DNA from: an uncultured Planctomycetota bacterium
Lineage (GTDB): Bacteria; Planctomycetota; Brocadiia; JAADGH01; CAYPFP01
Length of the DNA: 64,000 bases
Assembly: GCA_964409935.1 (NCBI GenBank)
Contig: CAYPFP010000001.1
Coordinates: 30,331 to 94,330, forward strand
Direction of reading: 5' to 3'
Below the pieces are notes generated by a model. The model was not told the DNA's origin. It worked only from the letters and a program-made list of their open reading frames with translations, and did not search any database. This document shows positions 1,256 through 64,000 of the stretch, in pieces; the first letter of the stretch is position 1, and each line of letters opens with the position of its first letter. The translations under genes were made by a program, and so were the position numbers.

Positions 1256-1290
1256 GGAAGCGCCAGCCCGAAGCCCCAAGAGAAACGACG

Positions 1291-39100: not shown

Positions 39101-39328
39101 GAGTTCCATCCGGAGCCGGGGCGGGGCGGCCCCGAGATACCCGTCGTGAGCCAGTTTGTGGGGGGGATGTTCGGCGCGGCCGTCACGATCTCCGTCACCG
39201 GCACGGTGTGGAATCCCGTGATCAAGGTGGACCCCCTCGTCCCCATCGGGAAGATGATGCTGGGTCTGTCGGAGGCCTTCGGGGCTGTCGGGAAGAAACC
39301 GAAGAAGGCCGCCCGGCCGTCCCCTTAG
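36194..39328 (+). CDS. AsmA/TamB-like large envelope protein (about 1045 aa)
   Basis: gggagg RBS 7 nt before ATG 36194; TM LPLLFILTAGLGGPYLAL; AsmA-like N-domain RVERVKIGVFHGVELRGVSVSKSDAKGLAPFLQVKSLWLKNYLKPLLRGRFVIEEVDIDQPTVFLTRNADGRWN. Confidence 0.7.
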   Translation: MKRLLVRKRVWLPLLFILTAGLGGPYLALRLFVNPEEIKATVERMLSEQFGGRARVERVKIGVFHGVELRGVSVSKSDAKGLAPFLQVKSLWLKNYLKPLLRGRFVIEEVDIDQPTVFLTRNADGRWNIQQTTGEPSGGGGMAASGPSALASLSVHDATIEIRDQYAGQNFPSMRILGVNFSAISREPGNLPFTITGRIASSILGQCLVSGSLDLDNGVFNLSLSRKGLVLDDELAKNLRTFRPDLFRVLGGWRGLMDLRFNLTYDLIGSGGVKYRLMAKLLGDSLTVKGLPYSFQSIYGAVTLTDEKLVVQNVRGRWGSTRFVVDGALPLANPAGRPGITVSLLNVPLDPRLAALAGKEVSEAWKEFKPTGQFDVLCRLDGCLYAIRDLRYRASIFLKECGFSHQRLDVPIERINGQIDVTRERLHVRRMTALWRGIQIEMPPASTQLSADAPVDFVLRLASLPLDEKLKALLPPDHRASWDQFSPKGVVNAAIHVRRKAGAASPFEATVALTCVKDCEFTYKQFPRTLRNVQGVVEFRSDGVAFRGVKGSVGAGKVEFVDTVIPFDPCASFNFEFTAADIEFDRELYDALSPELKAVYDRINPSGRFDLEWHQERRRGPNARTIHDVVVRPRGAAVLIKDVPYPLNNLQGTILYDGERISLDKLTAQNGPARVAVEGRVPRSSSSGTLHVRVAGRNIPLDDSVQNVLPEGYQGLWGKIEPQGAIHFSLELNEGIDELGKPLVRYTVPELRLLNCAVRPKVPVTGIRGLVKFTGEIREDPRNSWASGEVVLDEAVIEGKKYDSVNATFHNERDLMTFPYIEARCYGGKVVGELKVNKGASVDSSGYEAFFRAENVSARQICESAGVALKSVDGAIFADFRAEARSWKAEDLNADGSFRISQGHLGDLVSMMGVTEKLNTGPAKPAFTDVDFDYIIAENEAVIEKARLIGPSINLKGEGKIGLDGNLSLEFHPEPGRGGPEIPVVSQFVGGMFGAAVTISVTGTVWNPVIKVDPLVPIGKMMLGLSEAFGAVGKKPKKAARPSP

Positions 39329-42326: not shown

Positions 42327-42469
42327 AGTCCCTCATTGTACTACTGTTATGTTTTTTGTCAAGCATTCGCTGCACAAATTCTTCTCGGCCTGCCTGCTGC
42401 TTGATTTTCCGCCGTCAAGGCCGTAAGCTTTATGCTCGTAACCCATCGGGCGGAAAGGAGACGCGCACC

Positions 42470-43552
42470 ATGCTGCTGGCCGAACCGGTTCAACCCGACT
42501 TCGAGGCCTTTCGCAATAACATTCTGCGCAAGGGCGCTCCGCGCCGGGTCCACTTCGCCGAACTGTTTCTCGACGGCGAGGTCCGCAACGCCATCGCCGG
42601 TCGCTACGGCATCGGCGCCGGACTGGACAAGGGCGATCCGTTTTACGCCCTCCGGCTGGAGATCGAGATGCAGACCTTCCTCGGCTACGACACCGTGCGC
42701 GGCGCGGTCGGCTCGAGCGGCTTTCCTCGTCCGACGGCGCCCGCGCCGGATACGACCGAGATCGGCGGCCAGCGCCGCGCCCAGCGGAACTGGACGGACG
42801 AGCACAAAGGCCCGGTCGCTTCATGGGAGGACTATGAGAAGTATCCCTGGCCCGACCCCGCCAAGTTCGACTGCCGCCAGCTCGAGTGGTATGAAAAGAA
42901 TCTGGACCCGCGCTTGGGCGTTGTCGTGGGCTGCCACCAGATATTCGAGCAGGTCACGTGGCTCATGGGGTACGAAACCCTCTGCTACCAGCTTCACGAC
43001 GCCCCCGCCCTCGTGGACGCCATGTTCGAGCGCATCGGGAAATTTTTCGTCGAGGTGGCCGAGACCGCCTGCCAATTCTCCTGCGTCAAGGCCCTCTTCG
43101 GCGGCGACGACATGGGTTACAAGACCGCGCTCATGGTCCCGCCCGATGTGCTCATCCGGAAGTCCTTTCCCTGGCATCGCCGTATCTCCGAGATTGCCCA
43201 TAACCGCGGCAAGCTCAACATTCTTCACTCCTGCGGCAACCTGGACGCCGTCATGGACCCCCTCATTGACTACTGTCAGTTCGACGGGAAACATTCCTTC
43301 GAAGACGTGATCGAGCCGGTCACCGAGGCGAAGGGGAAATGGGGCGGCCGCATCGCGTTGTTGGGCGGCATTGACGTGGACTTTCTGGCCCGCGCAAACG
43401 ATCAGGAGATCCGGCAGCGCGTCCGGCGGACGCTTGACGTGTGCCTGCCCGGCGGCGGCTACTGTCTCGGCTCCGGCAATTCCGTGGCCAACTACATCCC
43501 CGTCGAAAACTACCTGATCATGCTCGACGAGGGCCGCTGCTATTCCGCCTGA
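42470..43552 (+). CDS. uroporphyrinogen-decarboxylase (URO-D) family protein, paralog 1
   Basis: ATG 42470 after an aaaggaga RBS; 360 aa; URO-D/MtaA-like TIM-barrel blocks; C-terminal GGGYCLGSGNSVANYIPVENY shared with paralog 3. Confidence 0.8.
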   Translation: MLLAEPVQPDFEAFRNNILRKGAPRRVHFAELFLDGEVRNAIAGRYGIGAGLDKGDPFYALRLEIEMQTFLGYDTVRGAVGSSGFPRPTAPAPDTTEIGGQRRAQRNWTDEHKGPVASWEDYEKYPWPDPAKFDCRQLEWYEKNLDPRLGVVVGCHQIFEQVTWLMGYETLCYQLHDAPALVDAMFERIGKFFVEVAETACQFSCVKALFGGDDMGYKTALMVPPDVLIRKSFPWHRRISEIAHNRGKLNILHSCGNLDAVMDPLIDYCQFDGKHSFEDVIEPVTEAKGKWGGRIALLGGIDVDFLARANDQEIRQRVRRTLDVCLPGGGYCLGSGNSVANYIPVENYLIMLDEGRCYSA

Positions 43553-46242: not shown

Positions 46243-46661
46243 AGTTCGACATTGTGAAATGGTCGGCCCGCGTCCTGGCCCTGCTATGGGCGGGTTGGTG
46301 GATGTTCTTCGGCCTGGCGTGCGGCGCTTCGCACAAGTGGGGCCTGTTCGCCTGTCTGCTTCACGGCGCCGTGCCCGGCGGGATTTACCTGGTCAGCGCG
46401 CTGGTTCCGTGGAGGTGGCCCCTTGCCGGCGGAGTGTTGCTTGTCGTTGAAGGGTCGGCCATTCTGATCGGGTATCCCGTGCTGGTCCATGGACGTTTCA
46501 GGCTCTCGACAATCCTCTTTGTGGCGGCTACAATGGCCGCGCCGCCGCTGATTTCGGGCGCGTTGTTCATCTTCCATGGCAGGAGGTCGAGGTCCCATGA
46601 CCAGTCGAGAGCGGGTGCTGGCCGCGTTGAACCACCAGGAGCCGGACCGGGTCCCCATTGA
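46239..46661 (+). CDS. small 4-TM membrane protein
   Basis: ATG overlaps the upstream stop (ATGA); four hydrophobic segments; 3' end overlaps the next gene by about 65 nt, so the true end is uncertain. Confidence 0.4.
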   Translation: MKFDIVKWSARVLALLWAGWWMFFGLACGASHKWGLFACLLHGAVPGGIYLVSALVPWRWPLAGGVLLVVEGSAILIGYPVLVHGRFRLSTILFVAATMAAPPLISGALFIFHGRRSRSHDQSRAGAGRVEPPGAGPGPH

Positions 46662-47847
46662 CCTGGGCGGGAGCTTCGTGACCAGCATTGCCGCGCAGTC
46701 CCTGGACAGGCTGCGCCGCCGCCTGGGCCTTGAGCACCGGCCGGTCAAGGTCTACGACGTGATGCAGATGCTCGGCGAGGTGGAGCTTGACCTTGCGGAG
46801 CGGTTCCAGGTGGACGTCCTTCCCGTCGAGCCGCCCGCGCTCACGCTCGGCGTGCCGCGCGGCGACTGGAAGCCGTGGCGTCTGTTCGACGGCACGGAGG
46901 TGCTGATGCCGGGCCGCTTCAACGTGGCCGTCGGGCCCGAAGGCGACTGGCTGCTGCGCCACCCCGCCAACCCCGACGCCCCGCCCATCGCCCGGATGCC
47001 CAAGGACGGATTCTACTTCGACGCCATCAACTACGGCGGCTGGAACCCCGACTTCAAGCCGCCCCGTCTGGAGCAGGTGCGCGCCGGCATGAAGAGCTGG
47101 CTGCTCAAGGACGAGACGCTTCGCCACATGCAGGCCCTGGCGCGCACGTTGCGCGGCAGTTCCGACAGGGCGCTGCTCCTCGGGTCCTGGGGCGCGACGG
47201 GCATGCACTACGTGGGAACGCTCACGGAATTCTGGTGTCTCTTGGGCACGGACCCCGCCTATGTGCGGGACCTTTTCATGCTCTCGGCCGAGGCCGCCAT
47301 CCAGAACCTCGGCATGATGTGGCAGGCCATCGGCAAGGACGTGGACATCATCGCCGTCACGGGCCTCGACTACGGCACGCAGCGGCGCGAGTGGTTCTCG
47401 CCGGAGACGTTCCGCGAGGTCTACGTCCCTGCGCTGCGGGCGCAGTTCAACTGGATTCACGAACACACTCCGTGGAAGACCTTCGAGCACTCCTGCGGCA
47501 GCATCCCGAACCTTATCGGCGACCTGGCCGACGCCGGCCTCGACGCCCTGAACCCCGTGCAGACGTCCGCCGAAGGCATGGACCCGCGCTGGCTGAAGAA
47601 GACATTCGGCGAGCGGATTACGTTCTGGGGCGGCGTCGTCGAGACGCAGTCCACGCTCGCCTTCGGCACGCCCGACGAGGTGCGCGCCGAGGTCGCCGAG
47701 CGCATCGGCATCTTTGCGCCGGGCGGAGGCTTCGTCTTCTGTCCCATCCACAACATACAGGCGGACACGCCCGCCGACAACATCGCCGCGGCGTATGAAA
47801 CGGCCCTGGCGGTCGGCCGGTATCCCATCTCCCGGAAGGGCGCATGA
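46597..47847 (+). CDS. URO-D family protein, paralog 2
   Basis: aggaggt RBS 10 nt before ATG 46597; MTSRERVLAALNHQEPDRVPIDLGGSFV...; 416 aa. Confidence 0.8.
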   Translation: MTSRERVLAALNHQEPDRVPIDLGGSFVTSIAAQSLDRLRRRLGLEHRPVKVYDVMQMLGEVELDLAERFQVDVLPVEPPALTLGVPRGDWKPWRLFDGTEVLMPGRFNVAVGPEGDWLLRHPANPDAPPIARMPKDGFYFDAINYGGWNPDFKPPRLEQVRAGMKSWLLKDETLRHMQALARTLRGSSDRALLLGSWGATGMHYVGTLTEFWCLLGTDPAYVRDLFMLSAEAAIQNLGMMWQAIGKDVDIIAVTGLDYGTQRREWFSPETFREVYVPALRAQFNWIHEHTPWKTFEHSCGSIPNLIGDLADAGLDALNPVQTSAEGMDPRWLKKTFGERITFWGGVVETQSTLAFGTPDEVRAEVAERIGIFAPGGGFVFCPIHNIQADTPADNIAAAYETALAVGRYPISRKGA

Positions 47848-51683: not shown

Positions 51684-52727
51684 TTACATTGTCTCGAAAG
51701 CGGTTTCGATCATGGCCCGGTAGTTCTCGACGGGCACGTAATAGGTGACGGAGTTGGACGAGCCGAGGCAGTACCCGCCGTCGTAGGCCAGGTCGCGGAT
51801 GTTGGCGCGGGCGAGGGTCCGCACTTCGTCGGGGGCGCCCCGCGAGAGGCGGTCCAACTCGATGTTTCCGGCCAGGCACAGCCGGCCTTCGACGCGCTTT
51901 TTCAACGCGCGGATATCCATGGCTTTAGGTTCGACCGGATGCAGGCCGTTGAAGCCGGCGTTGATGATATCCTCAATGACCGCCGTCAGGTCTCCGTCGG
52001 AGTGGTAGAGGAACGGTATGTCGCGCTGCTGGCAGAGCAGCGACATCTTCCTGTACCACGGGAACATGTATTTGCGCAGGATGGCCGGCGAGACCATCAG
52101 GCCCGTCCCGTAGGCGATGTCGTCGGACATCCACGCCGCGGCCACGCCGGGCAGTTCCAGGGCCTGTTCGAGCGCCCGGAATTGGATGTTGCCGACCTTG
52201 TTGAACAGCCGTTCGACGAGGGCGGGGTTCTCCACGGTGGCCAGGGCGAAGGTTTCGAAGCCCATGAGCATCCACACCGACGTGAAGACCTTGCCGAGGA
52301 TGGCGATGGTGCGCATGTCGGGCGGGAGGAGTTTGGAGACTTCCCGCGCCACGGCGAGGCCGGGGCTTTCCTCGGCGGGCCACTGGAAGCGCTCAAGCTC
52401 CTCTTCGGTCGTGATGACGCCCTTGCCTTCGGCGGCCCACTTCATCTCGACCTCTTCTTCGGAGTAGATGCTGTAGCGGGATCGCTTTCGCAGCGTGGCG
52501 TCGCCGGACAGGACGCCGCCCACCTCCAGGATGCCGAGCGAGATGGGCACGTAGTCGTAGCCGGCCAGAATCCAGAACTCCACCTCGTCCTGCAACGAAG
52601 CGGCGCGTTTGCCGAGGAAGGCGGACTTGACTTGGTTGTCTACGAATAACTCGATAAGGGGGACGCGATCCGGCTTGCCTTCGAGCAGCAGGGCGGCGCG
52701 AAGCCTGGTGAAATCGTTGCGTTTCAT
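51684..52727 (-). CDS. URO-D family protein, paralog 3
   Basis: 347 aa; N-terminal RLRAALLLEGKPDRVPLIELFVDNQV and C-terminal GGYCLGSSNSVTYYVPVENY parallel paralog 1. Confidence 0.8.
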   Translation of the reverse strand: MKRNDFTRLRAALLLEGKPDRVPLIELFVDNQVKSAFLGKRAASLQDEVEFWILAGYDYVPISLGILEVGGVLSGDATLRKRSRYSIYSEEEVEMKWAAEGKGVITTEEELERFQWPAEESPGLAVAREVSKLLPPDMRTIAILGKVFTSVWMLMGFETFALATVENPALVERLFNKVGNIQFRALEQALELPGVAAAWMSDDIAYGTGLMVSPAILRKYMFPWYRKMSLLCQQRDIPFLYHSDGDLTAVIEDIINAGFNGLHPVEPKAMDIRALKKRVEGRLCLAGNIELDRLSRGAPDEVRTLARANIRDLAYDGGYCLGSSNSVTYYVPVENYRAMIETAFETM

Positions 52728-52898: not shown

Positions 52899-53192
52899 TT
52901 ACTTCTTTTCCGCCGGCTTCTTTTCTTCCGGCTTTGCGGGGGCCGCAGGAGCCGCCGGAGCCGCAGGGGCCGCCGGGGCCGGAGTCGCCGCGGGGGCCGC
53001 CGGGGCCGGAGTCGCCGCGGGGGCCGCCGGGGCCGGAGTCGCCGCGGGGGCCGCCGGGGGCGCCTCAGGCTTGGCTTCCTTCTTCTCAGCCGCCGGCTTC
53101 TTCGGTTCCTTGGCCGGCTTCACTTCCTCACCGCATCCGACGATAAACCCTACGCCAACCGCCAACGTTAGCGCCAGCAACCACTTGTGCAT
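52899..53192 (-). CDS. Pro/Ala-rich tandem-repeat lipoprotein (97 aa)
   Basis: [23 protein letters not shown] lipobox; three-plus copies of the 9-aa repeat TPAPAAPAA encoded by a 27-bp tandem repeat; strong aaaggagg RBS. Confidence 0.6.
52960..53060. repeat. 27-bp tandem repeat (about 3.5 copies) inside the lipoprotein gene
   Basis: The unit ggccggagtcgccgcgggggccgccgg recurs at 52977, 53004, 53031 (period 27). Confidence 0.7.
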
Positions 53193-53295: not shown

Positions 53296-53342
53296 ATTGC
53301 AAAAAACCGACATGCCCGCCGCTCCCTCCGATGGCGGCGGAA
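53296..53342 (-). terminator. candidate terminator after the giant pseudopilin gene
   Basis: Minus-strand hairpin ccgccgc...gcggcgg (53316-53341) followed by ggTTTTTTgcaaTTTTTg. Confidence 0.35.
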
Positions 53343-53373: not shown

Positions 53374-56300
53374 TCAGTATTCGGTCACAAAGCGCGAGGT
53401 TTGGGCCTTTACGCCGTCGGTGACGCCGTCGGCCCCCGGTGTCGGGAGGCCGGTGGCAAGCGGCTGGGCGTTGAGATTGTTGACGATATCGGTTCGCTCG
53501 ACCAGGGCGCGGATGCGGGCCTCAGCCAGTTGGCCGCTGGGGTTGAAGACGCGCCCGCGGGCTACGACGGTGAAGAAGCGCGACTTGATGTCGAGCACGT
53601 TCCAGTACCGCGAGAACCATTCCATGCGCTCGGCGATGTCGTCGGCCAGGTCGTCGTTCAGGTAACCCGCGCCGGTGTCGTCGAAGTCCAGAGGGTTGAA
53701 CCACGATCCGGAGCCGAGGTTGATGGGGTAGTTGTAGGCGCTGTTGTCGGCGCGGCCGCCGTTGCGGATGGCGGTGGTGCCCGTTCGCACGCTCCAATCC
53801 CTCTGATAGACTCTATCCCGAAGGGTCTGGGTGTCCGAATCCGGGCTGACGTTGAACTGTCTTGGGGTCTTCAGGAGGGTGTAGAAGGCGTTGCGGGTGA
53901 AGAAGGGGTCGCCGCGCAGGACCTCGAAGTTGACGCCCAGGCCGAAGCCCTGGGGGGCGATGGGGGCCACGCCCCGGTCGCTGCGCAGGGGGAGTATGAC
54001 GTTGTTCAGCTCCGCGCTGACCGCGTTGGTGTACCGGCAGGAGGTCGGAAGGATCCTTCGGCGGAGTTCGGGGGTTTCGAGATTGATGGTGGCGTTGTCG
54101 CCGGGGGCCGGGGGCGTGCCGCTGCCGGAGAGGCCGATATATCCTGAGAATCCGCAGACGTCGAGGATGTCGCGGTAGGGGCGGTGACGGATGATGTCGG
54201 CGGCCATGGAGGTGGGGAAGACGGCGGCCAGTACGGGCATGGAGGCGGTGTTGATGTTGATCTTCGCCCGCGCGCGGCCGTGGGGCCAGACGGTGGCGAT
54301 CTCGCGCCAGTCGGGCGTTCGTTCGACCCAGGCGTAATTGGTGGTGCTGGCGGTCTGCGGTCTGGGGAAGACGGTGGGCCGCAGGTAGAGAGGCGCGGCG
54401 AAGTTGGTGCGGGCGGTCCACAGGGCGTTGCGCTGGTTCGGGATGGTGGTGTTCAGGACCCACGTCGTGAAGGGCGAGGGTCGGAAGGAGTAGTCCGTGT
54501 TCAGGGTTCCGGCGGCGTAGGTGGCGGTGAGTCCGCCGCTCAGGCCGATGAGGCGGGTGAGGATGTTGTCGTCGTAGTAGCAGGGGCCTCTGTTCTGGCC
54601 GTTGGCCGGGTTTTCCACGAAGAGGCGGGCCACGTCGTTCTCGCCGACGCGCTCTTCGGGCAGGATGGGGGCCATGTTCTTCCAAGGCCCCATCGGGGAA
54701 TGGACGAAGGCCAGCCAGCCGACGCTGGGGAAGGCGTTGTCGAGCACGACGGGGACAGTGCGATTGTCAATGGCCATGCGCAGTTCGACATGGTCCATCC
54801 AGTGGTGGTCGTTCTGGTTGCCGGGCCTTCGGGTGCCCGCGGGCAGGTCGCGGAACCAGGCAGGGGCGGAGGCCATGTCGTCCACGTGTCCGGGATAGAG
54901 GTACTTGCGGCCGAAGACGTTGCCGGCGTCATAGAAATACATGTAATTCTTGTTCCAGTTGCGCAGGCGGCGGCGGCCGGTCTCGACGTCGGGGGGGTCG
55001 TTGGTGGTGGAGGCGGGGTCGGGCCGCCAGAGGTTCCGCTGGCTGCTGCGCCACCAGAGGTTTTGGGACATGTCGTAACTGGCTGCCTGTCGCTGGAACA
55101 GGTTCGCCTTGGTGCTGTTGAAGTCGGGGTCAATCTGAAGCCATGCGGCGTTCATGCCGGCGCGGGCCTGGGGATCGGAGGCGTTGACGGGCATGAAGCG
55201 CTTCATGGAGGCGTTGGCGTGGCCGGCGTTGGGCACGACGGGGGCCGTTTTCTCGATGGCGCAGTAATCATACCGGTCCGTGGCGGCGCTGGCCTTGTCG
55301 CCGGTGGTGATGGCGGCGACCTGGCGGCTGGTGAAGTTCATGCTGGAGGCGCCGGCCCAGAGGTCAATCTCGCCGCCGGCGACCTGGAATTGCAGGGGCT
55401 GTGCGCGGCCGGGGATGGTGGGTCCCCAGATTTCGGAGCGGCCCCACACGGTGACGGGATTGCTCGTGGTTCCCTGATCGCGGTTCCAGAGTCCGAAGAG
55501 TTGGTCAATCTCCCTTATGGGGGAGGGGGGCGTCGTCGTGAAGTTGGACGGGAATTCCATGAACTGGACGGGGTAGTCCTCTTCGCCGACCCGGCCCCAG
55601 CCCACGTTGGAGATCACGTAGCCGGGCGTGGCGGCGTAGTAGTCCGAGACGGCGCCCGCGCCGAAGGTACCGCAATAGGCCGCTTCGCTGAGGGCCACGA
55701 CGTAATAGCCGAAGTTGGTGGGGAACATCCCGTCGGCGGTGGCCGGGGGGATGAAGGTGGTGGCTCTCTGTGCTCCCGCTTTGACGTCATAGAAGAGGGC
55801 GGTTTCGTTTTGGGTGGTCTTGGGGTCGTTGCCCAGCCAGAATCCGGGCCGAAGGGGACGACCGCTTCGGTCGTCGTAGAGGAAGTAATTGTTGACGTCC
55901 ACGAGACTCGGAGTAGGGGTGCGCATGACGAGCTTGAAGGCGAGCAAGCCGCCTGGCGACAGGGCCAGCGGGATGGGTTTCTTGCCGATATTGACCAGTT
56001 CCGCGTAGGGGCAGACGAAACGGAGGCTGTAGAACTTGGCGAACTTGTTGGCGACGCCGCCGGCGGGGTCCCACCGGCTGATGCCGCGGACCCTGATGAC
56101 GAAGCCGACGTTGGGGTCGGCGTCCACCCGGATGGCCATGGACTTGCGGCCGCCTCTGGGGAGGGGCTTGCCGATGCTGGGGATCGTGTTGTCGGGGTAG
56201 GTCACGAAGCCATAGATGTTGTCCACACCGGCGGACTCGTCGGTCAGGTTCACCGTGCCGGTGTTGGCGTCCTTCACCGGGACGTGGAAGCGGCGGAAGT

Positions 56301-59300
56301 TCCTGTCGCCGACGGTGAGGTTGTGGAAACCGGTCGCGGTCGGGTAGTCCAGGCCGGTGGGGGTGAGCAGGACGACGCCGTTGCGTTGGCCGGGCAGGCT
56401 GCTGCCCATGTCGGTGGCGGGGAAGCTGACGGCCAGGCTGGCGCCCTTGGGGAAGCCGTCCGGTTCGGTGCCCGTGGCGCCGACATCGTAGGATTCGCCG
56501 TAGGCCATGACGACGTAGGCCCCGCGGGGGACGCCCTTGATGCGCCACTGGCCGGTCACCTTTGCGTCCACGGGGGTGACGGGGGGAGGATTGGTTGCCG
56601 GGTTGGGCGCGCGGACGTTGAGGATGAACTCGTTGGGCGTGGCGCCCGGCTCCCACTTGGCCTCCAGGCTGAGGGGGTCGGCGAGGGCGGGCAGGAAACG
56701 AGGGGGATCTTCCGCCGCCGTGTAGCTGGCATCCACCGTTACCTCCGACGTGGGGACCGTTCGGGTCTTGCTCCTGTCGGAGCCGTGTATTTCGGGGGCG
56801 ACCATGACTTCGTTGAGGTGCACGCCCTCGACGCCGAAGATGTCCACATTCCCCGTTTGGAGCCGCTGCTGGTAGTCAGGCCAGTTCAGAGCGGTTTCGA
56901 GGTTGGGGTACGATGTGACCAGCATGGCGGGGACGGGGAAGGTGTAGTTGGAGGCGTTGTTGTCCTGGTCCTGGAAGTCCACGATGTTGGCCCACATCTG
57001 GTCGCGCAGGATGCGGCCAAGCGTGGCGACGGGGTCGGTGGTGGTGTCCGTGGCGTCATAGGATGCCGGCTGGCCGACGAGGGTGTAGGGCCTGGCGATG
57101 CCGAGGGGCTGGAAGCTGGGGTCGGATTCGGGGACGGGGGGGACGTAAACGCCGTCGCCGGAGGATTGGTCCGTGGGGGCGCAGCGCATGGCGGGGAAGA
57201 AATACTGGTTGCTGCCCAGGCGCAGGGCGATGGTGTCCACATAACCGGCGTTGCTGTATTCGAGGCCGCCCGTGATCCGGCCGGCGCCGAAGGCGCGGCG
57301 GAAGGCGCGTTTCAGCCGGGCCACCTTCTCGGCGCCGTTGAGGGGCCTGGTGTCCTCTTCCGGGGGGTTGGCGCCGCCGATCCAACTGGTGGGCGGGTCG
57401 TACTCGCCCTGCTGGACGCGGGCGGGGTAAGGAGGGTTGGAGAAGGTGCGGGTGACCGAAAGGCTGGAGTCGGTGGCGTTCTGGGAGACCACGATGCCGT
57501 TAATGGCGTTGCTCTGGTCGGCGCGCCGCCAGCCGTTTTGAGAGCGGGGGATGTCAATGCGGCCATTGTTGTCGTTGTCCATCTGGTCGGAATGCCAGAG
57601 GTCCACGTTGATGTTCACCTTGCCGGTATCGTGGTCGGCGACGGAGACGGAGATGTCTTCGCGCACGATGCTGAAGACGCGGGAGGCCTCGGCATAGAGG
57701 TCGCCGATGTCCAGGATGGGCGTGGTGGGGTTGCCGCTGGCGTCGAGGCGGGTGGGGTCGAAGTCGCCGTTGACGTTGACGGCGACGTTGCCGCTGTTGT
57801 TGAGGATGTAACCGACGCCGAGCCGCTGGCCGATGGTGGCCTGTCCTCTGCTGCCGACCCAGGCGTCATTGGTGGGGAAGGGGGCGGCGGCGCGGCCGCC
57901 GGTAGCGCCCCAGACGAGGGCGTCAATCATCTGCTCGATGGCGGTGTAGGGGCGGTCGTCGCCGCGGGGGTAGACGGGGTCGAACTCGCGGTCGTCGTCA
58001 ATGCCCTCGATGGTTCCGCTGGCGCCGAGGGGGTAAGGCTCGTCCACGAATTGACTGGTAGTGCGGTCGTGCGGCTCCCAAAACCGTTGGGAAGGGTTCG
58101 CGCCCATCATGAAGTTGGGCACGCCGTCGTTGAAGCCCACGTTGAAATTGACGTTGGCGTTGGCGGTGGGGAATCCGATGCCCTTGTCGAGGGTGTTGGC
58201 GCCGACGACGGCGTTCCAGTTGCCGTTGTCGTCCAGGCCGTTCTCGCGGACCAGGAGGCGGCGCCTGTTGTAGATGTCCCAATCCGTCAACGTTCCGGCG
58301 GCGGGGACGTCGTGGTCGCTGTCGTCATCCACGTTGCGGCGGCCGGGGAAGAGGTCCTGGCCGTAGCGGTAGAGGATGATGGCGCGGGCGAAGCCGCGGG
58401 CCTGGGTGACGGTGAAGCCGTAGGCCTCGAAGAAGCGCACGAGGCTGACGCGGAAGGAGTCGAGCTTCATGGTGGCGTCGAGGGCGCCGTTGGCGGCGTA
58501 GAAGGCGGGGTCCCACAGGCTGCCGTGGGCGTTGAGGTTGATCTTTCCTCCCTCGTCGAGGATCATGCCCTCCACGTCGTTGCCGTCGCTGAGTTCAAGG
58601 TCGGGCAGGGCGCTGGAGAGCGCGCCGCCGGTGGTCCGATATCGGCCATCGGAGTCCTCGTCGTCGTCCTGGGCGTTGCCGCCCAGGCGGCCGCCGGCGT
58701 AGCTGACGAAGTTGGTGCGGGGTGCGCTGGCCGTTGGCACGGGGTTTCCGGTCCAAAGGGGGTAGTAACCGTCGGCGGTCTGGCCGTCGTCGTCGGTGTC
58801 ATTGGCGATATTGCGGGTGTAAACGCCGCCGGTCAGGTTGGCGTCCACGCGTTTGAGGCCCAGGTTGCCGGCGCCCATGTCGCGCAGGTCGCCGAAGCCC
58901 TCCTCCCAGACGCGGCCGTCGTTGTCCGAGGTCACGTTCTGGGTCTGGCCGTTAACATTGTCCAGAATATAGTTCCAGCTGGTTGGCGGTACGCGCGCTA
59001 GCCATATCCAGGGTTCGACTCGGCCGGCGGCGACGGTGGTGTTGGTCTGGTAAACGTATTGGAAACTCTTGCCGGCTTGGTTTTCGTTGCCCATCTGGTC
59101 GCCGCTGAAGAGGTCGTCGTTGGCGAGATTGTTGTAGTAGGAGGCGTCCCAGAAGTTGCGGGTGCGGGCGGTGTCCTTGTAGGTCATGGCCGCTGTGCGG
59201 TTGAGAGTTCTGTTGAAGTAGCTGCGGCCGTCGGGAATTCCGGGGTCTTCGTTGGGAAAGCCGTCGCCGTCGGAGTCGGCGAGCATGTTGTTGTCTTCGT

Positions 59301-59976
59301 CCACCTGGCCGTCGCGGTCGTCGTCTACGTTGGGGGCGCCGGGGCGGCCGTCCTGGTCGGGGGTGAAGCCGTCCTCGTCCACGAGGGGAGTCAGGCCGAG
59401 GGCGTTGCGCTGGTCGCGGTCCTCGTCATCGTCGGAGGCGTTGCCGCCGGGGTTGTAGCCGGGGGTGCCGGCGGTGTAGCCGTTGATGTCCTCGTCTATT
59501 TTGCCGTCGCCGTCGTCGTCAATGCCCTGGATGCCGGGATAGCCGTCGGCATTGTCGTCGCCGGGGGGGTCTTCGTTGATGTGCCAGTTGAGGTCGTAGC
59601 AGGCGCGGCGGTTGCCGTCGTTGTAGACGAGTTTGTGATAGGGGTTGGCGGCGGGCTGGTTGTTGTTGCCCTGTGAGCGATTCCAGGTGGGCTGAAGCAC
59701 GCCGCTCGTGTTGGTGGGGCAGGGCGGCGTGAACCAGGCCTCGGAGAAGTCGTCGAAGCGGGGGTCGTCCTTGGACAGGATCTCGATGGCGGCCTGAAGG
59801 CCTTCCCTGGCGGCGAACTCGGCGATCTGGCGGTCGGTCAGCGTGCGGCTGCCGGCCAGTTCGGTGCGGGAGATGAGGGCGAAGGTGACGCCCATGAGCG
59901 CCAGCACGGCCAGTACGCCGACGGCGACGATCAGGATGGAACCTCGTTGGCGGGGTCCGTCGGAATTGTAGTTCAT
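53374..59976 (-). CDS. giant GspK-like minor pseudopilin (about 2200 aa) with thrombospondin-type-3-like Asp-rich Ca-binding repeats
   Basis: N-terminus RQRG|SILIVAVGVLAVLALMGVTFALISRTELAGSRTLTDRQIAEFAAREGLQAAIEIL matches the GspK/T2SS-K N-terminal helix (Gly at -1, no Glu5); DEGGKINLN motif typical of the GspK family; DDDGDGKIDEDINGY, DDRDGQVDEDNN, DSDGDGFPNEDPG, DDDEDSDGRY repeats; ggaagga RBS before ATG 59976. Confidence 0.8.
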   Translation of the reverse strand: MNYNSDGPRQRGSILIVAVGVLAVLALMGVTFALISRTELAGSRTLTDRQIAEFAAREGLQAAIEILSKDDPRFDDFSEAWFTPPCPTNTSGVLQPTWNRSQGNNNQPAANPYHKLVYNDGNRRACYDLNWHINEDPPGDDNADGYPGIQGIDDDGDGKIDEDINGYTAGTPGYNPGGNASDDDEDRDQRNALGLTPLVDEDGFTPDQDGRPGAPNVDDDRDGQVDEDNNMLADSDGDGFPNEDPGIPDGRSYFNRTLNRTAAMTYKDTARTRNFWDASYYNNLANDDLFSGDQMGNENQAGKSFQYVYQTNTTVAAGRVEPWIWLARVPPTSWNYILDNVNGQTQNVTSDNDGRVWEEGFGDLRDMGAGNLGLKRVDANLTGGVYTRNIANDTDDDGQTADGYYPLWTGNPVPTASAPRTNFVSYAGGRLGGNAQDDDEDSDGRYRTTGGALSSALPDLELSDGNDVEGMILDEGGKINLNAHGSLWDPAFYAANGALDATMKLDSFRVSLVRFFEAYGFTVTQARGFARAIILYRYGQDLFPGRRNVDDDSDHDVPAAGTLTDWDIYNRRRLLVRENGLDDNGNWNAVVGANTLDKGIGFPTANANVNFNVGFNDGVPNFMMGANPSQRFWEPHDRTTSQFVDEPYPLGASGTIEGIDDDREFDPVYPRGDDRPYTAIEQMIDALVWGATGGRAAAPFPTNDAWVGSRGQATIGQRLGVGYILNNSGNVAVNVNGDFDPTRLDASGNPTTPILDIGDLYAEASRVFSIVREDISVSVADHDTGKVNINVDLWHSDQMDNDNNGRIDIPRSQNGWRRADQSNAINGIVVSQNATDSSLSVTRTFSNPPYPARVQQGEYDPPTSWIGGANPPEEDTRPLNGAEKVARLKRAFRRAFGAGRITGGLEYSNAGYVDTIALRLGSNQYFFPAMRCAPTDQSSGDGVYVPPVPESDPSFQPLGIARPYTLVGQPASYDATDTTTDPVATLGRILRDQMWANIVDFQDQDNNASNYTFPVPAMLVTSYPNLETALNWPDYQQRLQTGNVDIFGVEGVHLNEVMVAPEIHGSDRSKTRTVPTSEVTVDASYTAAEDPPRFLPALADPLSLEAKWEPGATPNEFILNVRAPNPATNPPPVTPVDAKVTGQWRIKGVPRGAYVVMAYGESYDVGATGTEPDGFPKGASLAVSFPATDMGSSLPGQRNGVVLLTPTGLDYPTATGFHNLTVGDRNFRRFHVPVKDANTGTVNLTDESAGVDNIYGFVTYPDNTIPSIGKPLPRGGRKSMAIRVDADPNVGFVIRVRGISRWDPAGGVANKFAKFYSLRFVCPYAELVNIGKKPIPLALSPGGLLAFKLVMRTPTPSLVDVNNYFLYDDRSGRPLRPGFWLGNDPKTTQNETALFYDVKAGAQRATTFIPPATADGMFPTNFGYYVVALSEAAYCGTFGAGAVSDYYAATPGYVISNVGWGRVGEEDYPVQFMEFPSNFTTTPPSPIREIDQLFGLWNRDQGTTSNPVTVWGRSEIWGPTIPGRAQPLQFQVAGGEIDLWAGASSMNFTSRQVAAITTGDKASAATDRYDYCAIEKTAPVVPNAGHANASMKRFMPVNASDPQARAGMNAAWLQIDPDFNSTKANLFQRQAASYDMSQNLWWRSSQRNLWRPDPASTTNDPPDVETGRRRLRNWNKNYMYFYDAGNVFGRKYLYPGHVDDMASAPAWFRDLPAGTRRPGNQNDHHWMDHVELRMAIDNRTVPVVLDNAFPSVGWLAFVHSPMGPWKNMAPILPEERVGENDVARLFVENPANGQNRGPCYYDDNILTRLIGLSGGLTATYAAGTLNTDYSFRPSPFTTWVLNTTIPNQRNALWTARTNFAAPLYLRPTVFPRPQTASTTNYAWVERTPDWREIATVWPHGRARAKININTASMPVLAAVFPTSMAADIIRHRPYRDILDVCGFSGYIGLSGSGTPPAPGDNATINLETPELRRRILPTSCRYTNAVSAELNNVILPLRSDRGVAPIAPQGFGLGVNFEVLRGDPFFTRNAFYTLLKTPRQFNVSPDSDTQTLRDRVYQRDWSVRTGTTAIRNGGRADNSAYNYPINLGSGSWFNPLDFDDTGAGYLNDDLADDIAERMEWFSRYWNVLDIKSRFFTVVARGRVFNPSGQLAEARIRALVERTDIVNNLNAQPLATGLPTPGADGVTDGVKAQTSRFVTEY
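59240..59640 (-). repeat. region encoding Asp-rich calcium-binding (TSP3-like) repeats in the giant gene
   Basis: Clusters of gacgac/gatgac codons on the coding strand; protein motifs DxDxDGxxD. Confidence 0.5.
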
Positions 59977-60009
59977 CAGACTTGTTCCTTCCAGGGGCGG
60001 TAACAAACA

Positions 60010-60047
60010 GGTTTCGGGTTTCTGGTTTCTGGTGCCTGGTTATCTGG
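60010..60047. repeat. array of 7-bp tandem repeats (GGTTTCG/GGTTTCT x5)
   Basis: GGTTTCG GGTTTCT GGTTTCT GGTGCCT GGTTATC; reverse complement of the array at 60489-60540; overlaps the stop codon of the four-helix-bundle gene. Confidence 0.8.
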
Positions 60048-60450
60048 CAGATTCGGTAGTTTTCTTGTACTTGAGACCCTTTATCTGCGAAACACGAAGA
60101 TAGCGCATCAATCCGGCGATCATCCGGCCGGTTCTGCGCGTCAGGGCATACAAATCCTGGAAGACGTCCGGCTCGACATATTCCTGGTCCAAAGCGACGT
60201 ACAACTGGCTAGCGACTTCGCCCGAGGAGGCCGTGGCGTTGGAGAGGAATTGGAGAAACTCCTTGTTTCCGTCTCGCTCAAACCCTTCGGCAATATTGGA
60301 CATAATGGATATGCAGGCTCTGCGAATCTGGTCACGAAGCGCGTAATCCTTGGAGAACGCGCCCTGATTGGAAACCTTATAGATGTCACGGCTCAGTTCC
60401 CGCGCCGTCTGCCAGGCTTCTATGTCCTCAAATCTCTTGAAGGTAGCCAT
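60040..60450 (-). CDS. four-helix-bundle protein (23S rRNA intervening-sequence protein family, TIGR02436-like)
   Basis: 136 aa; MATFKRFEDIEAWQTARELSRDIYKVSN...ALRDQIRRACISIMSNIAEGFER...EFLQFLSNATASSGEVASQLYVALDQEY is the characteristic pattern; lower GC than its flanks. Confidence 0.8.
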   Translation of the reverse strand: MATFKRFEDIEAWQTARELSRDIYKVSNQGAFSKDYALRDQIRRACISIMSNIAEGFERDGNKEFLQFLSNATASSGEVASQLYVALDQEYVEPDVFQDLYALTRRTGRMIAGLMRYLRVSQIKGLKYKKTTESAR

Positions 60451-60488
60451 CTTGGCTGCCCCTGTGCCTCAGGATTCGAGTAGCAGGA

Positions 60489-60540
60489 CCCGAAACCCGA
60501 AACCCGAAACCAGAAACCCTAAACCCGAAACCCGAAACCT
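60489..60540. repeat. array of 7-bp tandem repeats (CGAAACC x7 with variants)
   Basis: CGAAACC CGAAACC CGAAACC AGAAACC CTAAACC CGAAACC CGAAACC; begins 3 nt after the pseudopilin stop. Confidence 0.8.
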
Positions 60541-60543
60541 CCG

Positions 60544-61578
60544 TCACAAATCCCCCCTCCGGGGTCCCAGCGCCTTGATGTAGGAGGGGATGAAGATGAC
60601 CTGGCGGAAGACTATGCCGACCTCGTCCACGCGGAAGTCGGCCTGCTTCAGGCCGTCGCCGGGGTAGTCGTCGGTTCGACCGGGAGCGAGGAACTGGGCT
60701 CTGGGCCGGGGTTCGTCGCGTCCGTCGGTGATTTCCGTGGAGTAAAAGTCCGTCCATTCGTATTCGTTGGGGTCGGCGATGCGCAGGGTGACCTGGACGG
60801 CGGCGGGGATGCGGGCGCGAGCGGCCTGGTCGCTGTCGAAGGCCCAGGACGTGTTGGCTCCGGCGCCGGAACGATTCACCAGGTTGTAGGCCATGCCTCG
60901 CGTCGGCGGCCAGAAGTCGAACCAGTGCGTTTCTCTCTCGCCGCTCAGCCAGACTCGCTGGTCGGAGTTCTGATTGAAGCCGTCCACCTGGTAGTACCGC
61001 AACTGGAATTCGCGCACGTTGAAGCCCAGGGCGCTGAAGTCAAAGCGGGGCGAGGGGTTCGCGGGGGTGGGGTCGTGGACGAGGACGGCGGCAAGGTCGG
61101 CCGCCGTGGTCGGCCCGGTGAGGAGTCGGCGCGAGACGCCTTTTTCCAGGACGTGGCGGCCGGTGACGCAGTAGACGACCTCGACGGGGGTGCCGAAGTT
61201 GGAGGATTCGGTGGTGGTGCGGAACCAGAGCATGTCGGGGTAGCAGTAGGGGACGCTGGTCCTGCTGGTGTCGCACAGGATGTTGAAGAACGGGACGCGC
61301 GGCACCCAGGTGCTGGAGTAGGTGTAGGCGCGGTTCCAGCCGATGAAGACGTTGCCGCTCTCGTCCACGACGGCGCCTTGCAGGTCGCGCTGCATGGTGT
61401 CAACGATGGCGCGGACCGTCTGGTAGATGGCGATGCGGGCGTCGGCGCTCGAGAGCATGTTTCCGGCGCTGCTGAAGATGGTGTAGAGCATGATGGTGAT
61501 GATGGTCATGAGGCCGGCGGCGACGGTGAGTTCGACGAGGGTGAACGCCGCGGCGGCCTTTGATTTGAGTTTCTTCAT
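60544..61578 (-). CDS. prepilin-type N-terminal cleavage/methylation domain protein (GspJ-like minor pseudopilin, 344 aa)
   Basis: KAAAAFTLVELTVAAGLMTIITIML N-terminus (FTLxE core, Ala at -1). Confidence 0.75.
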   Translation of the reverse strand: MKKLKSKAAAAFTLVELTVAAGLMTIITIMLYTIFSSAGNMLSSADARIAIYQTVRAIVDTMQRDLQGAVVDESGNVFIGWNRAYTYSSTWVPRVPFFNILCDTSRTSVPYCYPDMLWFRTTTESSNFGTPVEVVYCVTGRHVLEKGVSRRLLTGPTTAADLAAVLVHDPTPANPSPRFDFSALGFNVREFQLRYYQVDGFNQNSDQRVWLSGERETHWFDFWPPTRGMAYNLVNRSGAGANTSWAFDSDQAARARIPAAVQVTLRIADPNEYEWTDFYSTEITDGRDEPRPRAQFLAPGRTDDYPGDGLKQADFRVDEVGIVFRQVIFIPSYIKALGPRRGDL

Positions 61579-61643
61579 GCGACCTTCCTTTTCGTGATGC
61601 GCGTGACGTGGAGAACGACTCGCGCGATACGCACGCCCTTTCG

Positions 61644-63017
61644 TCAGAAGAACGACGAGATGGTGCTTGTCGAGACGCCGATGAGCGTCTGCGGCGACTG
61701 GTCCTGTATCGTCCGCATATGGTTATAGTTGAGGAAGACCAGCACGTCCACGCGGGCGCCGAGGGGAACGGAGGCTTCCTTGCCCCTGCGGGCCGGTTCG
61801 GGGGAGAAGGCGTCGCGGGGGATGGGGATCGGCGCTATGGCCCAGGCGTTGACGTTTGCGTTGACGTCTTCGGAATTGCTCATGATGATGGCGTAGGAAT
61901 ACGAGGAGCCGGCGATGGTGGCTTCGGGGTCGTTGAGCCAGTCTTTGCGGTTGGCGCCGAAGGGGATGGTCTGGTCCGGTTCCGCGTTGCCTGCGCCGAA
62001 GTTCGAGGCGGTGGGCCTGCCGGTCACGGCGTCGGGAGGGCCGAAGGGGAAGACGGCGCTGACTTCCCTGGCGCCCAGGATGACGAAGCTGTCGTTGCGG
62101 CGCACGCGTCCGTTCAGGGCGTCGCCGGTGTTGAGCCAGTTGTTGTTGGCCGGCTCGGCGGCGCTGAAAATGCCGCGGGTGACGTTGACGCTGCTGGCGG
62201 TGTTGGAGGTGACGGGGAGCACCTTGCCCTTGGCCAGGCCGCTGGTGAAGACGACGAAGAAACGGGCGTCCACGCCGGCGGCGGCGCCGGTTCTGGAGAA
62301 CTCGTTGGGGGTCCAGTTGACATAGCCGGTGGTTCCGAAGTTATCGTCCGCCGCGTCCATCCGCTTGGCCGTGATGCTGTTGCCGGAGGCGGAGACGACG
62401 CGCGCCATGCGGGGACTGCCGGGGGAGCGCGGCAAGGCCCACTTGGTGATGACGAAGCACGAGCTGTTGTCCAGCGGCATGGGGCGGTTGAGAGGGTCGA
62501 GGAAGGGAGAGCTGACCGTGACATGGAAGGAGGCCGCATAGGCCATGGAGGTGCTGTCAATCCTCCGGACCTGGCCGGCGCCCGTGCCGGAGGTCACCAG
62601 CAGGTAGTGGCCCGCCCGGCTGGTGTACATGAAGGGGTACTGGGCCTGCGCGCGCCAGTCCACGCCCGCTCCGGAGGCGGCGCCGGGGCTGATCTCGCAG
62701 TAGACGGTGGTGGGGGTCTGCGTGATGGCGGTGGAGTTGGCGGCGACGCGGTACCAGGGATTTCGCAGGCGGTAGTCGAAGACCTCGCTGGTGTTCACCA
62801 TGTAGTTGACTTGCGCGAAGGCCGTTTGCGAGGCCAGGTAGACGACCTTGTTGTTGATGGCGCGCGTGGTGGCATCGAGTCCCACGGGGAACAGGGACAT
62901 GACGCCCACGATGCCCAGGACCATGATGAACATGGCGATGAGGATTTCGGTGAGCGTAAAGCCCGCGGCCGCCGTGGTTTTCGCTTGTCGGTTCATTGGC
63001 ATCTTTCGTTCTTGCAT
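61644..63017 (-). CDS. prepilin-type N-terminal cleavage/methylation domain protein (expanded minor pseudopilin, 457 aa)
   Basis: TAAAGFTLTEILIAMFIMVLGIVGV is a canonical G|FTLxE prepilin signal. Confidence 0.8.
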   Translation of the reverse strand: MQERKMPMNRQAKTTAAAGFTLTEILIAMFIMVLGIVGVMSLFPVGLDATTRAINNKVVYLASQTAFAQVNYMVNTSEVFDYRLRNPWYRVAANSTAITQTPTTVYCEISPGAASGAGVDWRAQAQYPFMYTSRAGHYLLVTSGTGAGQVRRIDSTSMAYAASFHVTVSSPFLDPLNRPMPLDNSSCFVITKWALPRSPGSPRMARVVSASGNSITAKRMDAADDNFGTTGYVNWTPNEFSRTGAAAGVDARFFVVFTSGLAKGKVLPVTSNTASSVNVTRGIFSAAEPANNNWLNTGDALNGRVRRNDSFVILGAREVSAVFPFGPPDAVTGRPTASNFGAGNAEPDQTIPFGANRKDWLNDPEATIAGSSYSYAIIMSNSEDVNANVNAWAIAPIPIPRDAFSPEPARRGKEASVPLGARVDVLVFLNYNHMRTIQDQSPQTLIGVSTSTISSFF

Positions 63018-63072
63018 AGGCGAGGGGTCAGGCGGCTGGCGGGTCCGGTCCTGAACGCCCCAACCCGGTCAT

Positions 63073-63894
63073 TCACATCACCTGCACGACCCCGCCGGTC
63101 TGGGGGAAGAAGATGATCCATGCGCCGCCGGCGAAGATGGGCGCGCCGGTCGAATGGGGGCGGTTGGGGGTGTACTTTCCGCGTTCCACGACGAGGAACG
63201 CCCGCCGCCCGTTGTTTTCGAACTGGATGCTCGTGACGTACATGATCTCGTCGTCAATGAGGATGTAGCCCGTGGCCTCGATGCTGTGGCTGGTGCTGAT
63301 CTCGATGCGCGTCTGGAAGGCGTCTACATCGCCCAGGAGCGCGCCGACCGTGCCGCCGCCGACGGATGTGACGATGCCGCCGGTGGGCTTTGCGTAGCGA
63401 GAGGCGGCCTCCGCCTTGACATCGGTGACGTACTTGCCCGTGCCGTCCTTGTCGAAGGTGAGGACCATGACGGGGCGGGCGCCGTTGGAGTAGCCGGCCT
63501 GGATGGCGGCGGTGTTGTCGCCGATGGCTCTGGAGAGATTGACGTCGCGTCTCCAGTGGTTATCGGGGACGCGGAAGGTGATGCCTTCGGGGAGGACGAC
63601 GGGGGCGTCCACCGGCACGTATTGAGAGTCGGTCACGACGCAGAACCGTTCGCCATGGTAGACGATGAGAGAAGCGGTGGAGTTGGTGGCGATGGCGTGA
63701 TGGCGGGCCTGGAGCGTGGCGGCGTGGAGCTGGCGTGCCGCATGGCGCTCCCGGCTGCGGCTGATCATGGGGCTGGTCGCCACGATGGAGACGAGGGCGA
63801 GCAGGATGACGATGCCGATGACGGTGAGCATCTCGGCCAGCGTAAAGGCTTGGTCGCGTCGGCGGTACGGCATCGCGATTCGATCCATTTTCAT
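63073..63894 (-). CDS. GspH-like pseudopilin
   Basis: gcaggagg RBS then ATG AAA ATG; RRRDQAFTLAEMLTVIGIVILLALVSIV...SRERHAARQLHAATLQARHHAIA resembles GspH. Confidence 0.75.
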   Translation of the reverse strand: MKMDRIAMPYRRRDQAFTLAEMLTVIGIVILLALVSIVATSPMISRSRERHAARQLHAATLQARHHAIATNSTASLIVYHGERFCVVTDSQYVPVDAPVVLPEGITFRVPDNHWRRDVNLSRAIGDNTAAIQAGYSNGARPVMVLTFDKDGTGKYVTDVKAEAASRYAKPTGGIVTSVGGGTVGALLGDVDAFQTRIEISTSHSIEATGYILIDDEIMYVTSIQFENNGRRAFLVVERGKYTPNRPHSTGAPIFAGGAWIIFFPQTGGVVQVM

Positions 63895-63908
63895 TGCAGC
63901 CTCCTGCA

Positions 63909-64000
63909 TTATCTGCTTCCCCAGTTATTTACATCATCGGCGGCTTCGCCGAGCATATTCAGTTCGGGGGCGTCGTCCACCGCGCCGTTCATGTCGTCGT
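63909..64000 (-). CDS. 3' end of an upstream gene of the same operon (partial)
   Basis: In-frame ...DDMNGAVDDAPELNMLGEAADDVNNWGSR then TAA (63911-63909), followed directly by the RBS of the GspH-like gene. Confidence 0.35.
   Translation of the reverse strand, partial: DDMNGAVDDAPELNMLGEAADDVNNWGSR

Follow-up and report, generated by a model that had tools for sequence, protein, structure and literature searches.

A probable type II secretion-type filament operon with enlarged pseudopilins in an uncultured Planctomycetota bacterium

In the canonical type II secretion system (T2SS), as represented by the E. coli K-12 gsp operon, genes for the ATPase GspE and the platform protein GspF precede the pseudopilin genes, which follow one another in the order G-H-I-J-K. 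In the structure of the GspI-J-K tip complex (PDB 3CI0), the alpha-domain of GspK caps the tip, and the presence of bulky pilin modules at this position has been discussed (PMC8179133). Here, we describe a minus-strand gene cluster that lies at one end of a 64,000-nt stretch of contig CAYPFP010000001.1 from an uncultured Planctomycetota bacterium (GCA_964409935.1; hereafter, this whole stretch is referred to as the window). The cluster is probably a T2SS-type type IV filament operon, in which the pilin-like subunits are two to seven times their usual size. Its loci are called H, I, J and K after GspH, GspI, GspJ and GspK, and the contigs compared with it are designated L004–L013.

On the minus strand of positions 53374–64000, we identified five complete open reading frames (ORFs) and a sixth that is cut (Table 1). 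An earlier note, made from the sequence alone, had reported four genes with pilin-type N-termini at 53374–63909, and all of these ORFs were found in their places. The GC content at third codon positions (GC3) amounts to 0.88–0.90 in H, I, J and K, in a sequence with an overall GC content of 64%, and these ORFs therefore represent real genes. Moreover, a regular expression for the prepilin motif, applied to all six frames of the 64-kb window, returned exactly three FTLxE sites, one in the N-terminus of each of the proteins H, I and J; the pilin cluster is thus not a product of chance. In each of these three proteins, the class III signal is followed by a segment in which 17–18 of 18 residues are uncharged. 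Together with the three GspG-like proteins described below, six subunits carry a class III signal with Phe at +1 and Glu at +5, and the N-terminus of K, QRG/SILIVAVGVLAVLALM (the slash separates positions -1 and +1), is devoid of Glu+5, just like that of E. coli GspK, QRG/VALLIVLMLLALM (QRG/VALLIVLM).

The earlier note also anticipated that the operon would continue beyond the window with a major pseudopilin and an ATPase, as is indeed the case. Logan contig L004 (SRR11582140; 10,444 nt), which carries the J-like protein, reads, from its position 4633 on, as the window end in reverse complement (5,812 nt with a single mismatch) and adds 4.6 kb of upstream sequence. This extension encodes the C-terminal 149 amino acids (aa) of a GspE/PilB ATPase (TIGR02533, 2e-45; PF00437), a GspF/PilC platform protein (TIGR02120, 5e-119) and, directly upstream of H, three GspG-like pseudopilins of 326, 259–265 and 262 aa (G1, G2 and G3, respectively), for all of which GspG is the best-matching family. 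The operon is therefore gspE-gspF-gspG1-G2-G3-H-I-J-(small gene)-K, with the window holding its distal half; a terminator-like hairpin comes after K and is likely its 3' end. The check for gspG, gspE/F and the prepilin peptidase proposed in that note has therefore yielded gspE, gspF and three gspG-like genes, but no peptidase in the available sequence.

Of the two GspG test families (TIGR01710 and PF08334), TIGR01710 matches G1, G2 and G3 at 1.6e-14, 2.4e-13 and 1.2e-7, respectively, all of these scores being under the 88.85-bit cut-off, while hhalign of small G1–G3 family profiles against E. coli GspG returned probabilities of 95.6–97.5% (95.6% for G3). All three proteins possess, besides the 65 N-terminal residues typical of GspG, its acidic calcium-site motif DDxxNW at the C-terminus, the three ends reading DDLNNW, DDINNW and DDVNNW, as compared to ...EDDITNW in E. 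coli GspG.

For H, I and J, the test families were PF12019, TIGR01708, TIGR01707 and GspJ. The best profile matches run in the canonical H, I, J, K order, in agreement with the identities proposed in the earlier note, though all of them are under the curated cut-offs. H matches ComGD (2.5e-9), a PpdA-type model, GspH (2e-3; 18 bits vs a cut-off of 80), XpsH (3e-3) and PF12019 (0.068, residues 57–156; 14 bits vs 21), I matches PilV (1.5e-4) and GspI (0.03; 14.7 bits vs 44), and J matches the N-terminus of Verru_Chthon C (7e-9, far under the cut-off), with its family aligning to E. coli GspJ at an hhalign probability of 90% over the N-terminal 56 columns. Since the profile matches reach the alpha-1 helix only, we assign H, I and J as putative counterparts of the namesake pseudopilins on the basis of gene order and helix signature. 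Their globular parts matched no known family, and phmmer and hmmsearch against PDB sequences returned nothing meaningful for H, I, J or K. A uL24/KOW-like match of I was dropped as not significant (E 0.07).

Three families (NF037980, PF03934 and PF21687) were used to test K. The protein matches the GspK model NF037980 at 1e-6 (28.6 bits vs a cut-off of 130; model positions 203–246) and PF03934 at 1.2e-4 (22.8 bits vs a cut-off of 24.2), the latter family being matched by all four giant homologues. When these four giants were compared with E. coli GspK by hhalign, three collinear blocks emerged: K residues 10–85 align to GspK 5–83 (E 0.035), covering the helix and a W-x-x-P motif; residues 443–489 align to GspK 68–114 (E 0.057), with LSDGNDVEGMILDEGGKINLNAHGSL opposite LEDGNTVKWQLRDAQHCFNLNAL; and residues 1891–1956 align to GspK 201–273 (E 0.35), with RAKININTAS... 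opposite ELSINLNML.... Because the blocks keep their order and coincide with GspK-specific motifs, the assignment of K as a GspK-type protein is credible, and they place predicted insertions that are about 360, 1,400 and 190 residues long. Within the first of these there are seven acidic runs, four of which are full DxDxDG-type loops, and the Asp and Gly positions of these runs are mostly invariant across all four full-length homologues, from which we infer that the loops are candidate calcium-binding sites. In the middle of the largest insertion, a G-x-E-G-V-H-L-N-E-V-M motif is invariant in the four giants (~56803–56835; K residues ~1058–1068) and has no family match. At E <= 1, Pfam recognised no family in the four giant homologues beyond T2SSK and helix-hairpin-helix (HhH), with neither a PilY1 beta-propeller nor any other adhesin domain among the matches, and no match to K was found among PDB sequences.

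The order E-F-G1-G2-G3-H-I-J-K is conserved across four contigs (L004, L005, L006 and L007), as far as each of them extends. L005 encodes E, F, G proteins of 316/260/296 aa, H of 273 aa, I of 447 aa and J of 374 aa, followed by the start of K. The corresponding sizes in L006 are 260 (H), 410 (I), 371 (J) and 1979 aa (K), and L007, from a metagenome-assembled genome (MAG) labelled Planctomycetota, encodes two GspE-type ATPases (595 and 574 aa), F, G proteins of 338/261/256 aa, H of 260 aa, I of 413 aa, J of 376 aa and K of >1,619 aa. The two ATPases of L007 are full-length, GspE/PilB-type proteins with MshEN and T2SSE domains, encoded in tandem upstream of gspF at positions 1279–3066 and 3162–4886 of that contig. 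The expansion of all members, pointed out in the earlier note, is thus true of the orthologous loci as well, and because both the gene order and the subunit sizes recur in L005, L006 and L007, the enlargement of every subunit is a stable lineage trait rather than an assembly artefact.

The family is a very rare one. I-like homologues of 402–467 aa with ~50% identity occur in a handful of metagenomes, J-like homologues measure 362–364 aa, and the closest named full-length cassette, from Planctomycetota, shows 27% identity in I. A scan of genome contigs with H alone gave no match, and a metagenome scan with the G1 alignment and profile retrieved one 1.5-kb fragment. An exhaustive HMMER search of 1.84 billion representative proteins with the C-terminal 561 aa of K produced 16 matches at E <= 0.001, four of which are full-length giants of 1,691–2,200 aa; a word-indexed homologue search found 2 relatives of K only. 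The host lineage of the hypertrophied operon is thus rare and, judging by the closest named full-length cassette, provisionally taken as probably planctomycetal. When six remoter K matches (1,068–1,430 aa) were scanned against NCBIfam, GspK-type N-termini were detected in five, two of which also match the N-terminus of Verru_Chthon A. Furthermore, Lentisphaerae, Victivallis and Auribacterota MAGs (L008–L013) carry K-like proteins of 923–1,140 aa downstream of normal-sized H/I/J genes, and a big K is therefore a wider theme in and around the Planctomycetes–Verrucomicrobia–Chlamydiae (PVC) group. Specific to this lineage are the extreme dimensions of K and the fact that G, H, I and J are enlarged as well.

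Table 1. Coordinates, within the window, of the operon genes and of the features associated with them.
Feature	Position	Strand	Remarks
G3 (third GspG-like, major-type pseudopilin), 3' end	63909..64000	-	Window holds last 29 codons, ending ...DDVNNWGSR* at 63909-63911
GspH-like minor pseudopilin	63073..63909	-	278 aa; signal RRRDQA/FTLAEM (Ala -1, Glu +5)
GspI/PilV-like minor pseudopilin	61644..63017	-	457 aa; signal TAAAG/FTLTEI; ~330 extra, beta-rich residues
GspJ/PilW-like minor pseudopilin	60544..61578	-	344 aa; signal KAAAA/FTLVEL (Ala -1)
Inverted repeat, upstream arm	60488..60553		~7.4 tandem heptamers ACCCGAA on + strand (GGTTTCG on gene strand)
Four-helix-bundle / 23S_rRNA_IVP gene	60040..60450	-	136 aa, between J and K; PF05635, TIGR02436
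Inverted repeat, downstream arm	60009..60041		85-92% complementary to upstream array; arms bracket four-helix-bundle gene
Giant GspK-like minor pseudopilin (K)	53374..60006	-	2210 aa; N-terminus PRQRG/SILIVAVGVL (QRG/SILIVAVGVLAVLALM), without Glu+5
K class III-type signal, hydrophobic alpha-1 helix, 'EAWFTP' motif	59722..59949	-	aa 20-95; GspK 5-83; NF037980 N-terminal matches in family members
K first insertion, acidic DxDxDG-type loops	58633..59520	-	E.g. DDDGDGKIDED, DDDRDGQVDED, DSDGDGFPNED
K 'LSDGNDVEGMILDEGGKINLNAHGSL' block	58510..58650	-	GspK 68-114: strands and start of first helical sub-domain
K putative second helix-hairpin-helix / SAM-like motif 'RAKININTASMPVLAAVF...RHRPYR'	54109..54306	-	GspK 201-273; PF03934, NF037980
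Terminator-like hairpin and T-run	53298..53321	-	~50 nt past K stop codon

The spacing of the genes is less uniform than the earlier note implied. The TAATG overlap between the G3 stop and the H start is present at 63911–63907, but J and K are not tightly spaced, since a gap of 537 nt, holding a fifth gene that had been overlooked, lies between them. The real start of H is likelier the ATG at 63894, located 15 nt downstream of the TAATG ATG and yielding a 273-aa product; as the gene caller uses this codon, which is preceded by AGGAGG at 63905–63900 (5 nt ahead), the TAATG coupling is probably not a functional start. Gene callers applied to public copies also begin I and K later, at 62996 (450 aa) and at ATG 59976 (2200 aa), respectively.

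The product of the fifth gene (136 aa) was recognised by PF05635 (1.4e-33; 115.7 bits vs a cut-off of 33.8) and TIGR02436 (9e-32; 109.6 bits vs 24). The window contains one copy of this four-helix-bundle gene, whose GC3 of 0.67 is below that of its neighbours and whose codon composition is atypical, and no such gene separates J from K in L002, L005, L006 or L007. The heptamer arms that bracket it pair as a long closing stem around the ORF (z = -3.2), so that gene and arms together resemble an IVS (intervening sequence)-type mobile insertion within an operon, judging by their sequence features. A search for literature on IVS-protein mobile elements found none.

Downstream of K, a near-consensus sigma-70-like promoter-like site of the next gene is located at 53288–53260 (11/12 consensus positions). 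Behind it, a 97-aa ORF on the minus strand (52899–53192) has an N-terminus of the lipoprotein type (…VGFIVGC), and a 27-nt tandem repeat (4.6 copies) encodes its Pro/Ala/Lys-rich body; this ORF is not kept downstream of K in the related loci. Farther away, three paralogous genes of the uroporphyrinogen decarboxylase (URO-D)-like family fall within 10 kb (42356–43552, 46576–47847 and 51684–52727), with oxidoreductase genes and a heparinase II/III-like gene lying among them, and large AsmA/DUF748/YhdP-like genes cluster on the plus strand at 27972–32411, 32389–33840 and 36188–39328 (1479, 483 and 1046 aa, respectively). In the DnaK ORF (17982–20168), the HSP70 domain does not begin until residue 87, and the GTG start of the ORF is probably too far upstream.

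In the T2SS-type mechanism that we propose, the pseudopilins would sit in the inner membrane, and a PilD/GspO-type A24 peptidase that is encoded elsewhere and accepts Gly or Ala at -1 would trim their short leaders. H, I, J and K would then assemble a priming or tip complex via their conserved alpha-1 helices and pilin cores, with GspE and GspF polymerising G1–G3 beneath it. Because the K insertions map in and around the GspK alpha-domain, the ~1,900 extra residues would occupy the position of this domain and be displayed at the filament tip, where this mass, including the acidic and probably Ca2+-binding loops, may act as a binding or capture module, a design that we infer to be analogous to modular pilins and PilY1. 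With G, H, I and J enlarged, the shaft would be thicker and decorated. The data do not discriminate between a short secretion piston within the periplasm and an extended fibre on the cell surface: the subunits are T2SS-type, but GspC/D/L/M genes are not seen in the available sequence, L007 encodes two assembly-type ATPases, and the tip is very large.

Several observations weigh against a T2SS-type assignment. Every family score of H, I, J and K is under its curated cut-off, and across all named families tested, curated thresholds were passed by the inserted four-helix-bundle gene only. For H, I and J, hhalign aligned no more than the N-terminal 27–56 columns, that is, the alpha-1 helix common to all pilins, and each of the K–GspK blocks, when taken alone, is weak and non-significant (E 0.035–0.35). 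Structure prediction has added little: the AlphaFold2 model of I, with a predicted local distance difference test (pLDDT) score of 57, features a helix at residues 22–75 followed by strands and gives weak small-barrel matches only, a fold comparison of this model returned no significant match and left the pilin core unconfirmed, and the model of the C-terminal 471 aa of K (pLDDT 30) is unusable. Neither the 32 other ORFs scanned in the window, which encode DnaK, PEPCK, URO-D-like enzymes, oxidoreductases, carbohydrate-active enzymes (CAZymes), AsmA-like proteins and an ABC exporter, nor the 4.6 kb upstream yielded a secretin, GspC/L/M or an A24 prepilin peptidase. In addition, a folded tip protein of ~240 kDa would be hard to pass through a standard secretin.

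With these difficulties in mind, one may ask whether the operon instead builds a long surface pilus of the type IVa-like kind, devoted to adhesion or capture, with K as a fused 'PilX + PilY1-like' tip adhesin. Such a pilus is possible, albeit doubtful. The combination of three major-type subunits with a huge tip protein would suit it, as would the two tandem PilB/GspE-type ATPases of L007, the GspF protein that scores nearly as well with PilC models as with those of GspF (375 vs 398 bits), and the fact that GspC/L/M/D genes are not seen adjacent to the operon; moreover, Planctomycetes bear 12-nm dextran-binding pili-like fibres (PMC5394234). However, the major subunits match GspG, its C-terminal acidic motif included, and not PilA, K has putative GspK-specific helical motifs, and neither a PilT-type retraction ATPase nor PilMNOPQ genes are seen in the available sequence. 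Nor was a PilY1 beta-propeller or another adhesin domain detected in K at E <= 1, and a PilY1 fusion as the family assignment of K was rejected, as none of the four giants has a Pfam match to the PilY1 propeller at this threshold. A more far-reaching proposal is that the enlarged G/H/I/J/K build the ~12 nm polysaccharide-binding fibres of planctomycetal crateriform structures, with K serving as a calcium-dependent tip capture module in a macromolecule-fishing type IV filament, a functional class distinct from both T2SS and type IV pili. If true, this would provide candidate genes for a long-observed, genetically unassigned structure. We regard it as unlikely, being possible but unsupported: although none of the observations conflicts with it, phylum, subunit size and a CAZyme-rich neighbourhood are all that would tie these fibres to the operon.

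Two further interpretations take their cue from individual profile matches. According to one, the operon encodes a DNA-uptake (competence-type) pseudopilus, in which K would contact DNA at the tip through its HhH motifs, a role also suggested for Thermus ComZ. The best NCBIfam match of H is to ComGD (2.5e-9), all K homologues weakly match HHH_3, a ComEA-type motif, and large tip pilins with a role in DNA handling are known (ComZ, cited in PMC8179133). Yet the HhH-like motif of K is probably the ordinary SAM-like sub-domain of GspK, given that PF03934 outscores HHH_3, the major subunits are GspG-like, and comEA, comEC and dprA were not found nearby; we consider DNA uptake extremely improbable. 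The other interpretation holds that the four genes are members of the curated Verru_Chthon cassette (D, B, C, A; TIGR02596/98/99/600), which is known from Verrucomicrobia. At their N-termini, H, I and J do match cassette members D, B and C, respectively, remote K relatives match the N-terminus of member A, and the design of three prepilin-type proteins and one giant protein is the same (the TIGR02600 profile has 1,296 positions). Nevertheless, the matches span the first 35–63 residues only, their scores amount to 19.3 bits vs a cut-off of 70 (D), 17.4 vs 51.4 (B) and 35.4 vs 256.5 (C), and the window K has no TIGR02600 match at E <= 0.1. Membership is thus very unlikely, the scores falling so far under the subfamily cut-offs that it is essentially refuted. 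No literature on this cassette was found.

The Ala residue at position -1 deserves separate consideration. Classical PilD/GspO enzymes strongly prefer Gly(-1), Ala(-1) is common in the ComGC pilins of Gram-positive bacteria, and, in mutagenesis of the P. aeruginosa pilin, Ala was reportedly the sole partly tolerated replacement of Gly(-1). The earlier note had called two of the four signals unusual and non-canonical on account of Ala(-1). The residue is present in H and J, as noted there, and the signal of G3 in L004 (262 aa; GSLRA/FTLIEI) is a third case, so that the -1 residues of the window genome are G1 G, G2 G, G3 A, H A, I G, J A and K G (Ala in 3/7). In L005, the pattern is G1 A, G2 A, G3 A, H G, I G, J G and K A; two I orthologues (P0008 and P0011) and a J orthologue (P0028) carry Ala at this position too, and the remoter L006 and L007 have Gly(-1) only. 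Since Gly and Ala alternate at orthologous -1 sites within the closer clade while the FTLxE remainder stays intact, Ala(-1) seems to be a neutral, tolerated substitution rather than a non-canonical one, and mildly informative on the cognate peptidase. One could argue that G3, H and J, the Ala(-1) proteins, remain uncleaved and membrane-anchored or are handled by a second, specialised peptidase, as the Gly(-1) preference of the classical enzymes and the occurrence of Ala in three of the seven signals might suggest. We find this improbable, because the exchange of Gly and Ala at one and the same orthologous site is the pattern of neutral change, and [GAS] at -1 is part of the accepted prepilin motif, published as [GAS]-x4-[DE], with PilD cleaving 'at a glycine or alanine' (PMC3244431). 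The operon would thereby offer natural evidence that at least one diderm prepilin peptidase treats Gly and Ala at -1 as interchangeable.

If the T2SS-type assignment is correct, an entire set of pseudopilins can increase two- to seven-fold in size with the T2SS gene order and the N-terminal assembly signals kept, which raises the mechanical question of how a secretin is traversed, or bypassed, by a ~240-kDa tip subunit and a thick shaft. Because pilin finders assume small subunits, as exemplified by PilFind, which caps the length at 350 aa (PMC3244431), systems like this operon, whose K protein far exceeds that length, go unannotated.

Compared to the canonical T2SS of E. coli K-12, the operon has the same order E-F-G-H-I-J-K, Phe+1 and Glu+5 in every subunit from G to J, a K protein without this Glu, and G proteins that keep the C-terminal acidic motif; K also shows three weak, collinear matches to GspK motifs, a putative second SAM-like/HhH sub-domain included. 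It differs in the sizes of its subunits, which measure 326/259/262 (G), 273 (H), 450 (I), 344 (J) and 2,200 aa (K), as opposed to 145, 169, 125, 195 and 327 aa in E. coli, as well as in the presence of three G paralogues, the frequent Ala(-1), and globular parts that are unrecognisable by sequence, with all profile scores under the curated cut-offs and gspC, D, L, M and O not found adjacent. With the Verru_Chthon cassette it shares the PVC superphylum, the combination of three prepilin-type proteins with a very large K-like protein, and weak N-terminal matches in the corresponding order; here, however, the cassette is joined to its own gspE/F/G, and K is ~900 residues longer than the TIGR02600 profile.

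The loci of L008–L013 likewise encode several FTLxE pseudopilins and, after them, a large K-type protein that lacks the Glu (e.g. KEG/MALIVTLLIL), but there only K is enlarged, to half the size seen here, H, I and J measure 165–307 aa, and the similarity to this operon extends no further than the N-terminal helix of I. Finally, a bulky module presented at the tip is also known from the modular pilins, such as S. sanguinis PilB/PilC, CofB of enterotoxigenic E. coli and Thermus ComZ, and from the non-pilin PilY1 (PMC8179133). K differs from these proteins in having no recognisable domain and no PilY1 propeller, and whereas modular pilins append their module, the extra mass of K appears to interrupt a GspK-type scaffold in at least three places.

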